Under the pieces are notes generated by a model, which worked only from the letters and a program-made list of their open reading frames with translations, was not told where the DNA came from and searched no databases. The translations under genes were made by a program, and so were the position numbers. A DNA stretch of 64,000 nucleotides, taken from positions 3,626 through 67,625 of the forward strand of contig JBBQYG010000002.1 in the NCBI GenBank assembly GCA_038208905.1, in the 5' to 3' direction. The first letter of the stretch is position 1, and each line of letters opens with the position of its first letter. This DNA comes from Candidatus Sumerlaeia bacterium (GTDB lineage: Bacteria; Sumerlaeota; Sumerlaeia; SLMS01). This document shows positions 12,383 to 14,718 of the stretch, in pieces.

Positions 12383-13930
12383 ATGAATAGAATCCAGAAA
12401 TTCTGGAACGATCTGCGATCCAACTTCTGGTTCGTTCCTTCGATCATCGTCCTGGTCAGTATTGCTCTTGCGGCGGTTCTGATTGGCGCAGACTCCACGG
12501 CCAGCCGACAATGGCTCGGTCAATGGCCGCGGCTGTTTGGGTCGGGGGCCGAGGGCGCTCGCGGAATGATGTCAACGATTGCGGGCTCGATGATGACCGT
12601 GGTGGGCGTTTCGTTCTCCATGATCCTGATGGTTCTGGCATTGGCTTCCACCCAATATACCTCACGTGTTCTGCGGAATTTCATGCGTAGCCGCGAAACG
12701 CAGGTCGTGCTCGGGATATTCGCCGGCATCTTCACCTATAGTCTAATCGTTCTGCGCTCGATTCGCAGCGGCGACGAGGGCGCGTTTGTTCCAAGCCTGG
12801 CGGTCTTTTTTGGCTTCGTACTGGCGCTCGGTGGGGTGGGAACCCTCATCTTCTTTATCCATCACATTGCCTCTTCGATTCAGGCTTCCAGCATCATCGC
12901 GTCAGTTGCCTACGAAACCATGGCAGCCATGGACCGCCTGTTTCCTGAAAAGCTTGGACAGGAACCGGAAGTGGAGTTGGACGATTCCATCATTCACCCG
13001 CTTGGCGAGCGGAGTTGGCACCCCATCCTGTCTGCTCGCAACGGGTACATTCTAAACGTGGACACCGATGCGCTCCTGTCCGTGGCGCGCGAACAAAAGA
13101 CAATCGTGCGAATGGAACGTGGCATCGGCCAGTTCACTGTTCAGAACACCGTCCTTTTCTCTCTCGCGATGGAAGAGCCGCCGAACAATAAGACGATCAA
13201 AGCCCTGCTGGCGGCCTTCGACATCAGCAGCCACCGCACGATCGAGCAGGACATAGAATTTGGCATTCGACAAATCGTTGATATCGCGATGAGGGCCCTA
13301 TCGCCCGGGGTCAACGACACCACGACGGCCGTAATGTGCGTCGACTACTTGACGGCGATCATGGCGCGCCTTGCGCCGCGACCCATGCCATCATTGCACC
13401 GCCACGAGGATGGACATTTGCGGGTGATCGCCAAGGCCCTGAGTTATGACGGATTGTTGGCAGAAGCGTTTGACCAGATTCGCAGCAACTCCAAGGGCAA
13501 TGTTGCCGTCATGCGGCGAATGCTCGGAGGTCTTCAAACCGTCGCCGCCCTAACGGCCAGGCCGGACCGGCGTCGAGCGATTAGCCAACAAGTGCGGTGG
13601 ATCGCCGATATCGCCGATCGCACGCTCGACTATGCTCAGGACCGCGCGGAGATCAACACCGCCTTGGAGTCCGTGCGCGAAATGCTGGAATTCGATCCTA
13701 TCGGGGAGCATGAGAACGACATGGAAGTCTTGCCGCTGATTCGCGAGTGGAGCGATAAACGGCCCGCGGAGCCATGCACACGCGAAACCGGCATCGAGGC
13801 CATGAGGCGACGGGCAATCGATCGATGGGAAAACGAAGGCGGAGTGATCCTGCCGCCCGAGCCCGGTGAACCGCGAGGCGGCGCGCGAGTCTCAGATTCG
13901 GTCGCAGCCCGGGGGTACCTGACGCCATGA
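12383..13930 (+). CDS. DUF2254-family integral membrane protein
   Basis: 515 aa; N-terminal multi-TM region (FWFVPSIIVLVSIALAAVLIG...MMTVVGVSFSMILMVLALASTQYTSRVLRNF) then a large soluble domain. Pattern recalled as DUF2254. 4-bp ATGA overlap with the downstream gene. Confidence 0.45.
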   Translation: MNRIQKFWNDLRSNFWFVPSIIVLVSIALAAVLIGADSTASRQWLGQWPRLFGSGAEGARGMMSTIAGSMMTVVGVSFSMILMVLALASTQYTSRVLRNFMRSRETQVVLGIFAGIFTYSLIVLRSIRSGDEGAFVPSLAVFFGFVLALGGVGTLIFFIHHIASSIQASSIIASVAYETMAAMDRLFPEKLGQEPEVELDDSIIHPLGERSWHPILSARNGYILNVDTDALLSVAREQKTIVRMERGIGQFTVQNTVLFSLAMEEPPNNKTIKALLAAFDISSHRTIEQDIEFGIRQIVDIAMRALSPGVNDTTTAVMCVDYLTAIMARLAPRPMPSLHRHEDGHLRVIAKALSYDGLLAEAFDQIRSNSKGNVAVMRRMLGGLQTVAALTARPDRRRAISQQVRWIADIADRTLDYAQDRAEINTALESVREMLEFDPIGEHENDMEVLPLIREWSDKRPAEPCTRETGIEAMRRRAIDRWENEGGVILPPEPGEPRGGARVSDSVAARGYLTP

Positions 13931-14718
13931 AGAAGCTCATCGTTTTTGACCTGGATGGTACACTCGCGGAAAGCAAAGCTCCCCTCGATGCCGAAATGGC
14001 TGCGCTATTGGGCGCCCTTCTCGCCTTTGAGAAAGTGGCGATCATCTCCGGCGGCAGCTGGCCACAATTCGAGAAACAGATCCTCCCCCATCTTCCACAC
14101 GACGGACGACTTGGGAATCTATCTCTTCTTCCCACCTGCGGAACGAAGTTCTATCGTTACGAGTCGGCCTGGAAGCTACTCTACTCGGAGGACTTCACTC
14201 CCGCGGCGAAGGAGCAAATCCGCAACGCGTTCAATCAGGCGGTTGCCTCGTCAGGCTTCGCAGCCAAACGAGTCTGGGGCGAGGTCGTGGAAGACCGGGG
14301 AAGCCAGGTTACTTTCTCTGCGCTGGGGCAGCTGGCACCCATCGAAGAAAGAAGGACGTGGGATCCCGACTTCGCCAAGCGCAAGAAGATCAAGGCGACC
14401 CTTGATGATCTCATCCCGCAGTTTTCCGTCCGCCTGGGCGGCATGACATCGATAGATGTCACCAAGTCGGGCATCGACAAAGCCTATGGGATTCGAAAAC
14501 TGAGCGACACGCTAGATGTTGCCATCCAAGAGATGGTATTTGTGGGGGATGCGCTGTTTCCTGGTGGGAACGACTATCCCGCCAGGAAAGCGGGCGTTGT
14601 GTCGATCCAGGTGAGAGACCCGGAGGAGACGAAGCGAGTGATCGAAACGATCGTCGCCTGCTTGGGTTGTGATCGAAATGCCGGCGCCGATGGACCGACG
14701 ATCGGGGGACAGAGATGA
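13927..14718 (+). CDS. HAD-IIB phosphatase, eukaryotic-type phosphomannomutase (PMM, PF03332)-like
   Basis: [14 protein letters not shown] (HAD motif I), [14 protein letters not shown], and C-terminal [15 protein letters not shown] resembling PMM FFGDKT.PGGNDHEI. ~263 aa as in PMMs. Overlaps both neighbours by 4 bp. Confidence 0.5.

Follow-up and report, generated by a model that had tools for sequence, protein, structure and literature searches.

A stretch of 64,000 nucleotides (nt) from the Candidatus Sumerlaeia bacterium assembly GCA_038208905.1 (contig JBBQYG010000002.1), referred to here as the window and used as the frame for all coordinates unless another locus is named, encodes a DUF2254 membrane protein and a HAD-family protein directly ahead of an operon for an N-type ATPase (N-ATPase). 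These genes belong to a longer array, in the order ackA, xfp, a small open reading frame (ORF), DUF2254, HAD and atpDCQRB-VIT1-EFAG, which runs uninterrupted on one strand and ends with atpG at 22246 (Table 1). Read letter by letter, the junctions consist of an ATGA at 13927-13930 that combines the DUF2254 stop with the HAD start, and a second ATGA at 14715-14718 that combines the HAD stop with the start of the N-type atpD; the coupling of both genes to atpD, proposed in an initial annotation of this DNA, was confirmed at exactly these positions. The same annotation described a 12-gene operon from 12383 to 22246, and that count is correct, with a VIT1 transporter gene as its twelfth member, but the unit begins further upstream, at ackA (8664), and thus contains 14-15 genes.

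Between 8664 and 22246, neighboring genes overlap or are separated by no more than 3 nt, except at three spacers of ∼150 nt (xfp/DUF2254), up to 8 nt (atpB/VIT1), and 88 nt (VIT1/atpE), and we infer that the array is co-transcribed over this interval. The earliest possible start of the ackA ORF lies at 8580, and gene callers in another assembly of the array (L171, described below) choose the start equivalent to 8664. The ATG of xfp follows the ackA stop by 2 nt and is preceded at 6 nt by a GGGAGGA box, while atpD has a GGGGGA box 5 nt before its ATG and no alternative start codon ahead of its beta-barrel domain, making 14715 its true start. The start of the HAD gene is likewise the true one, as its predicted N-terminus aligns with residue 1 of 19 homologs. 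The longest spacer holds a hypothetical 52-amino-acid ORF, predicted in three assemblies, whose start overlaps the xfp stop (TAATG) and whose stop overlaps the DUF2254 start (ATGAATAG); it has no Pfam match and no homolog among the fetched loci. In relatives the spacer is missing and xfp and DUF2254 overlap by 8 nt. Searches with blastx for a remnant gene in the spacer or in the C-terminal extension of DUF2254 returned marginal matches only (E ≥0.003, in low-complexity sequence).

Table 1. Features of the ackA-to-atpG array and its downstream edge, with the profile matches that identify them (bit scores and cut-offs where available).
Feature	Position	Strand	Evidence
ackA, acetate/propionate kinase	8664..9863	+	PF00871 349.7 bits; TIGR00016 343.9 bits (cut-off 293.4)
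xfp, phosphoketolase	9866..12232	+	XFP_N, XFP, and XFP_C domains; NF003619 1445 bits (cut-off 962)
Hypothetical 52-amino-acid ORF, uncertain	12232..12390	+	Called in L081 and L171
DUF2254 membrane protein, 515 amino acids	12383..13930	+	PF10011 403.5 bits
HAD-IIB protein of the PMM/PgmH family, 263 amino acids	13927..14718	+	PF03332 43.8 bits; Hydrolase_3; TIGR01484
atpD, beta subunit	14715..16190	+	TIGR03305 (alternate F1F0 beta) 880.1 bits (cut-off 752)
atpC, epsilon subunit	16162..16569	+	PF02823
atpQ (gene 1)	16562..16900	+	PF09527; TIGR02230
atpR, N-ATPase hallmark	16893..17207	+	PF12966 96 bits (cut-off 26); TIGR03165 101.3 bits (cut-off 55.5)
atpB, a subunit	17197..17919	+	PF00119
VIT1-family gene (Fe/Mn transporter family)	17928..18617	+	PF01988 185 bits
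atpE, c subunit	18706..18993	+	TIGR03322 163.7 bits (cut-off 130.85)
atpF, long b subunit, 269 amino acids, delta-like C-terminus	18997..19806	+	PF00430; PF00213 at residues 179-244
atpA, alpha subunit	19803..21356	+	
atpG, gamma subunit, last gene of the low-GC3 block	21353..22246	+	PF00231
Chimeric ORF, apparent rearrangement scar	22489..22992	+	IS66 TnpA fragment and last 80 residues of a short-chain dehydrogenase/reductase
tRNA-Ser(GGA)	24247..24337	-	ARAGORN

The same arrangement, including VIT1, was recovered at ∼99% DNA identity in three independent assemblies (L081, L170, and L171), which comprise the NCBI metagenome-assembled genome GCA_038246475.1, a JGI metagenome, and an ENA metagenome. 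The array is therefore not an assembly artifact; since all three assemblies come from a single lineage at the species level, they carry no added weight as evolutionary evidence.

Composition sets the array apart from its surroundings, in agreement with the lower GC content reported in the initial annotation. In 1-kb windows, GC content is 0.55-0.61 over 11001-19000 versus ∼0.64-0.70 elsewhere, and GC content at third codon positions (GC3) is 0.706 ± 0.026 for the 14 genes from ackA to atpG versus 0.811 ± 0.058 for 26 flanking genes (Mann-Whitney p = 2.5e-5). All 14 genes fall between 0.66 and 0.75, including ackA (0.69), and the shift is abrupt on both sides, with borders at ackA (8580/8664) and atpG. 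At the right edge, ∼250 nt past the atpG stop, begins a chimeric ORF that combines a fragment of an IS66 TnpA (residues 31-83; NF047593, 43 bits; cut-off 28) with the C-terminus of a short-chain dehydrogenase/reductase (SDR; residues 87-166; NF005214 positions 213-292 of 293 and PF13561 positions 161-234 of 236). Because of the GC3 contrast, the abrupt edges, and this apparent scar, horizontal acquisition of the entire 13.6-kb block 8664-22246 is well supported. The suggestion that the region was acquired as one unit is thus retained in substance, the block being distinct and probably of horizontal origin, but its border lies at ackA (8664) and not at 12383. The tRNA-Ser(GGA) gene 2 kb past the block is a possible former integration site. 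No integrase is present, the longest repeats flanking its edges are 11 nt (direct) and 10 nt (inverted), and a megablast search of 12383-14718 against a plasmid collection gave no match. Genes for DUF892 proteins occur at 6376-6984 and at 23218-23835, the latter with a perfect 15-bp hairpin resembling a terminator at 23983-24015 on its 3′ side, so that the block has genes for stress proteins on either side.

By family assignment, the genes downstream of HAD are a complete N-ATPase, the only ATPase operon in the 64-kb window, with the order atpD-C-Q-R-B-E-F-A-G, no atpH, and VIT1 between atpB and atpE as the sole deviation. N-ATPases are regarded as always being a second enzyme, next to a canonical F- or A-type ATPase of the same genome. 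The c subunit has a glutamate in helix 1 (PALAEGKAV) and the sequence AMIESTAIYC in helix 2, which together provide the full E...ESTxxY set of Na+ ligands. As this combination fits the ligand rule of Dibrova, Galperin & Mulkidjanian 2010 (PMC2881411), the enzyme is predicted to be specific for Na+, and N-ATPases in general are presumed to be ATP-driven pumps (PMC11738941). The operon resembles those described in PMC2881411 in its gene order, the presence of AtpR and AtpQ, the long b subunit with a delta-like tail, the lack of atpH, the glutamates in both c-subunit helices together with ESTxxY, and signs of lateral transfer. It differs in that its 5′ end is extended by ackA-xfp-DUF2254-HAD with no intergenic space before atpD, in the VIT1 gene between atpB and atpE, and in composition, as the GC content of N-ATPase operons tracked that of the host in that study, whereas GC3 here is 0.10 below the flanks. 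Gene insertions inside N-ATPase operons were already known from cyanobacteria (PMC2881411).

Among 61 other N-ATPase operons, none has a gene-sized gap between atpB and atpE, the widest gap being 184 nt. The VIT1 gene of the window has an alternative GTG start at 17916 that overlaps the atpB stop, and VIT1 genes elsewhere adjoin HAD (L005), lie near HAD (L015 and L072), or occur upstream of xfp (L116), which places VIT1 in the same floating gene pool as these genes. Insertions of 0.5-1.7 kb between atpA and atpG were seen in three related operons (L090, 15881-17544; L085, 16157-16791; L107, 11386-11873). At 90% identity, the beta subunit of the window clusters in a group of 1,858 sequences, with named members from Rhodoferax, Byssovorax, and Deferrisomatales (Betaproteobacteria, Myxococcota, and Deferrisomatales), and such unusually high conservation across phyla implies recent and frequent transfer.

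The genes preceding atpD were surveyed in the 80 metagenomic loci closest to the window beta subunit (79-88% identity), with xfp and ackA counted in the 40 loci having at least 2.6 kb of upstream sequence and DUF2254 and HAD in the 49 loci having at least 1.6 kb. On the same strand as atpD, xfp lies upstream in 22/40 loci, often ending within 350 nt of atpD, and ackA in 12/40, compared with 5/49 for DUF2254 and 6/49 for HAD; outside this lineage, the two latter genes are never found together. The linkage under study is therefore conserved in part, with either gene preceding atpD in some relatives but both in none, and the dominant association, with phosphoketolase and acetate kinase, was missed by the focus of the initial annotation on DUF2254 and HAD. 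Its statement that neither is a known N-ATPase partner stands, as neither is mentioned as such in the literature as far as it could be searched. The ORF adjoining atpD on its upstream side comes from a limited pool in 28 of 57 loci, namely xfp, DUF2254, GH130 beta-mannoside phosphorylase, HAD, PPK2, P-type ATPase, fructose-bisphosphate aldolase (FBA), and PRC genes. In Rhodoferax, a DUF1840 gene (positions 9687-10004) overlaps the N-type atpD by 4 nt, an instance of unrelated cargo coupled in the same manner.

Distant plasmid-borne N-ATPases, with AtpR proteins 42-49% identical, show the same sugar-phosphate theme with different genes. A Polymorphobacter plasmid (L175) has a divergent xfp-rpiA-pgi-tal-gnd-ackA-rpe-zwf-tkt cluster by its N-ATPase, a Hymenobacter psoromatis plasmid (L173) has triosephosphate isomerase upstream and phosphoglucomutase (PGM) and alpha-glucan phosphorylase downstream, the Croceicoccus N-ATPase has FBA and P-type ATPase neighbors, and a Legionella anisa plasmid (L174) carries a thymidine-phosphorylase-family gene and phosphoribosyl pyrophosphate synthetase. 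Judged by gene neighborhoods, phosphoketolase is the recurrent partner of this N-ATPase clade, and DUF2254 and HAD are not N-ATPase-specific: DUF2254 is more strongly linked to xfp as its primary partner, and HAD to GH130 together with type-I mannose-6-phosphate isomerase (PMI).

The DUF2254 protein matches PF10011 over residues 12-385 (367/368 model positions) and consists of an N-terminal helical membrane part followed by a cytoplasmic alpha/beta and helical domain. Members of its subfamily have ∼447 amino acids and share 65-70% identity over a range of taxa that includes Acidobacteriota, Planctomycetota, Methylobacter, and Desulfobacteraceae; homologs end ∼65 residues sooner than the window protein, which has a lineage-specific C-terminal extension at residues ∼450-515 (13730-13930) that is predicted to be disordered. 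The AlphaFold2 model has a predicted local distance difference test score (pLDDT) of ∼80 at residues 210-440 and ∼30 at residues 440-515, and none of the weak Pfam matches to either half of the protein is credible. Of five subfamily members examined on long contigs, three (L167, L168, and L169) have xfp immediately upstream with the 8-nt overlap, and Methylobacter marinus (L163) has an 85-amino-acid XFP_C fragment in this position with a full xfp ∼5 kb upstream. Locus L168 reads ackA-xfp-DUF2254-atpDCQRBEFAG, which corresponds to the window array without HAD and VIT1, and L169 contains xfp-DUF2254, three further genes, a phosphomannomutase (PMM) fragment, GH130, and an N-ATPase. Other usual neighbors are transaldolase, glucose-6-phosphate isomerase (PGI), class-I FBA, glycogen phosphorylase, PPK2, P-type ATPase, ribosome hibernation factor, and STAS proteins. 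The DUF2254 gene travels mainly with phosphoketolase, which is the best available clue to its function, and at a guess the protein may be a solute or ion channel, or have a regulatory function, tied to the phosphoketolase pathway rather than being an ATPase subunit. The literature on DUF2254, as far as searchable, treats only predicted knots and gives no function.

The HAD protein scores 43.8 bits against PF03332 (cut-off 22.4) and 64.9 bits against TIGR01484 (cut-off 41.8) and has a PMM-type cap. It was initially annotated as a phosphatase of a kind uncommon in bacteria, and neither part of that description is supported. All 17 of its sequence matches in the PDB are phosphoglucomutases or phosphomannomutases, with no phosphatase among them; the best is alpha-phosphoglucomutase from Lactococcus lactis (4BND; E = 2.5e-43, 36% identity over 244 residues), followed by PMM1/PMM2 and eukaryotic and protozoan PMMs. 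Residues D8, D10, T12, S41, K180, D208, N215, and D216, from the catalytic motifs DxDxT, II (Ser/Thr), III (Lys), and IV (GDxxxxGGND), are invariant in an alignment of 20 sequences that includes the window protein, as are the DxDxT and GDxxxPGGND motifs and the PMM-type cap arginine. As for rarity, at least 8,000 homologous proteins were found at E ≤ 1e-10, the best 120 of which are all 70-77% identical, and with one genome per species at least 580 loci in more than 10 phyla were confirmed. The best 80 of these loci encode proteins 65-76% identical to the window protein and come from Verrucomicrobiota, Planctomycetota, Acidobacteriota, Chloroflexota, Bacillota, Bacteroidota, Myxococcota, Actinomycetota, Fibrobacterota, and others, a degree of identity across phyla that points to strong constraint as well as to frequent transfer.

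The neighborhoods of these best 80 of at least 580 loci were compared by clustering their ORFs and running representatives through Pfam, and the HAD gene itself was recovered as an ORF in 78. A GH130 beta-mannoside phosphorylase gene lies directly downstream in 49/77 loci and a type-I PMI gene directly upstream in 30/73. Within 10 kb, the 78 loci contain PMI in 47 cases, a P-type cation ATPase in 42, phosphoketolase in 35, PPK2 in 25, class-I FBA in 22, ackA in 15, and an N-ATPase in only 5. Given the exclusively mutase matches in the PDB and the GH130/PMI neighborhood, the HAD protein is most likely a phosphohexomutase of the PgmH/PMM type, predicted to interconvert mannose 1-phosphate or glucose 1-phosphate and the corresponding 6-phosphates. 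Hymenobacter and Methylobacter have a non-homologous PGM of the alpha-D-phosphohexomutase type in the equivalent gene neighborhood, which supports this functional reading.

With PgmH (PDB 4BND; Neves et al. 2006, PMID 16980299) and PMM1/PMM2, the window protein shares the HAD-IIB core, the PMM-type cap, the DxDxT nucleophile motif, GDxxxPGGND, and the cap arginine, but it belongs to a separate and tightly conserved subfamily, ∼70% identical across phyla, whose usual position between PMI and GH130 points to mannose phosphates over glucose phosphates. Phosphorolysis followed by a mannose 1-phosphate/mannose 6-phosphate mutase and an isomerase is an accepted, ATP-saving route from beta-mannosides to fructose 6-phosphate (PMC4264767), and the GH130 and PMI neighbors of HAD relatives match this ATP-free entry of mannosides into central metabolism. 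The route as described employs an alpha-D-phosphohexomutase-type PMM and feeds glycolysis or GDP-mannose synthesis. The present case differs in that the mutase would be a HAD-type enzyme, that phosphoketolase and ion pumps adjoin the cluster, and that GH130 and PMI no longer accompany the window copy.

The best explanation of the locus, to which we assign a probability of roughly 0.6, is that DUF2254 and the mutase ride as facultative cargo on a mobile ackA-xfp-N-ATPase cassette that would lead from sugar phosphate through acetyl phosphate and ATP to Na+ pumping. This explanation builds on what was observed: which genes are present, how they overlap, their base composition, the synteny statistics, and the families to which they belong. 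Conserved among relatives would be a core in which phosphoketolase, sometimes accompanied by acetate kinase, immediately precedes an N-ATPase predicted to translocate Na+. The cargo would be drawn from a shared and highly mobile pool of reserve-mobilization and stress genes, which further includes GH130 phosphorylase, PMI, PGI, transaldolase, class-I FBA, PPK2, P-type cation ATPase, and ribosome hibernation factor. The two cargo genes would in this lineage have settled between xfp and atpD, where compaction produced the ATGA overlaps.

In such a cassette, the HAD protein would convert hexose 1-phosphate, the product of phosphorolysis, into hexose 6-phosphate. After isomerization, phosphoketolase, for which fructose 6-phosphate is a substrate, would split this compound or xylulose 5-phosphate with inorganic phosphate to yield acetyl phosphate, acetate kinase would form ATP from acetyl phosphate, and the N-ATPase would spend the ATP on expelling Na+, thereby holding the membrane potential without respiration. 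The presence of phosphoketolase and acetate kinase suggests that the pump runs on fermentative ATP, and DUF2254 is a membrane protein that would normally be co-translated with phosphoketolase. Enzyme specificities, the direction of the ATPase, and the physiological role are assigned in this scheme from knowledge of the families and are meant as predictions. A parallel is offered by Pseudomonas aeruginosa, in which, during survival by pyruvate fermentation or with phenazines, ATP derived from AckA and a reverse-running F-ATPase reportedly hold the membrane potential. By analogy, ATP from acetyl phosphate would in both cases be made by AckA and spent by a rotary ATPase in non-growing cells; the genes in P. 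aeruginosa are dispersed and the ATPase is the housekeeping F-ATPase, while in the window one transferable array unites the ATP-yielding enzymes with a dedicated second ATPase. The low-oxygen lxa locus of Burkholderia cenocepacia was considered as a precedent and rejected, since it includes acetate kinase but no alternative ATPase and no phosphoketolase (PMC3721108).

Several observations weigh against this explanation. The order DUF2254-HAD-atpD occurs in one species-level lineage only (99% DNA identity), and the overlap between DUF2254 and HAD is created by the disordered 65-residue extension and looks like an accident of juxtaposition. GH130, PMI, PGI, and any phosphorylase are absent from the 64-kb window, which leaves the mutase with no visible supplier or consumer within that distance. 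Roughly 45% of the related N-ATPase operons lack a nearby xfp, and Rhodoferax (L176-L178) has DUF808 and then DUF1840 upstream of atpD instead. The beta subunits of the 80 surveyed loci are at least 79% identical, and these loci may go back to few transfer events, so that their counts are not phylogenetically independent. The AlphaFold2 model of DUF2254 is weak in the membrane part (pLDDT <60), and a structural search with it gave no significant match. A consensus scan of 6000-24500 found 6 promoter-like sites (4.6 expected) and 15 terminator-like sites (15.1 expected), which is the level of chance and tells neither way.

One alternative is that the adjacency has no functional meaning and arose through deletions or IS-mediated rearrangement in a gene-dense and often reshuffled stress island, with the ATGA overlaps as a by-product of compaction. 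Such a history would account for a DUF2254 stop that is reached only through a lineage-specific disordered extension, a HAD gene deprived of its usual GH130 and PMI neighbors, the IS66 fragment and truncated SDR at the block edge, and a slot upstream of atpD that holds many different genes in relatives, with the exact order in one lineage only. Yet both genes are intact and keep all family-invariant residues, the occupants of the slot come overwhelmingly from one functionally coherent pool and not from random genome content, and DUF2254 or HAD recurs by N-ATPases in Fibrobacteria, Verrucomicrobiota, Acidobacteriota, and Planctomycetota, and fortuitous juxtaposition is accordingly considered unlikely, though it deserves to be kept in mind.

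A further alternative concerns the enzyme, which could be a phosphatase acting on sugar phosphates or acetyl phosphate to regulate flux, and not a mutase. Most of the HAD-IIB subfamily consists of phosphatases, TIGR01484 as the only TIGR model above its cut-off is a generic one, and mammalian PMM1 also has bisphosphatase activity. This assignment is nevertheless improbable, as the PDB matches include no Cof-type or MPGP-type phosphatases, the cap keeps PMM-type basic residues (R124 and R/K142 align with PMM2 arginines), and the place of the gene between PMI and GH130 fits a mannose 1-phosphate/mannose 6-phosphate mutase exactly. Finally, the idea that DUF2254, HAD, or both bind the N-ATPase as accessory subunits or assembly factors, to which stop/start overlaps suggestive of stoichiometric co-translation with beta, the membrane location of DUF2254, and the two poorly understood membrane extras that N-ATPases already have (AtpQ and AtpR) might lend appeal, is very hard to sustain when each gene precedes atpD in only ∼10% of close relatives and never together with the other, DUF2254 is far more consistently coupled to xfp and has no ATPase nearby in L163, L165, and L167, HAD is coupled to GH130/PMI in most genomes with an N-ATPase rarely in reach, and the closest characterized relatives of HAD are soluble mutases.

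Beyond the cargo explanation, a wider proposal can be made, tentatively and with the odds somewhat against it, in which this N-ATPase clade would be the output of a self-contained mobile 'reserve-to-ion-gradient' cassette. The chain would run from phosphorolysis through hexose-phosphate mutase, phosphoketolase, acetate kinase, and ATP to the Na+ pump, would keep up the membrane potential of aerobes in peat, soil, and sediment when they are not respiring, and would include DUF2254 as a new membrane component of the pathway.

Neither the type of operon nor the HAD family nor the GH130 route is new. No description of a link between N-ATPase and phosphoketolase, of the DUF2254 linkage, or of this gene combination was found in the literature searched, many subscription papers lying outside it, and within that searchable literature the recurrent fusion of a substrate-level phosphorylation module to an N-ATPase and the coupling of xfp to DUF2254 seem to be new. 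The translational coupling to phosphoketolase is the first clue from genomic context for DUF2254, and a widespread family of 'HAD hydrolases' can be relabeled as probable phosphomannomutases or phosphoglucomutases.

The fusion of DUF2254, HAD, and atpD is itself a quirk of one lineage and of modest importance. On the physiological role of N-ATPases, a question since 2010 that includes what feeds the pump and when, the linkage of this clade to phosphoketolase and acetate kinase in some half of the loci that are informative, with a slot between xfp/ackA and atpD that collects hexose-phosphate mutases, phosphorylases, PPK2, and cation pumps, leads to the specific and testable hypothesis that ATP derived from fermentation or reserves is spent on Na+ extrusion during non-respiring survival. 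If true, the 'reserve-to-ion-gradient' cassette would give the 'second ATPase' a concrete role and a testable chain of substrates.

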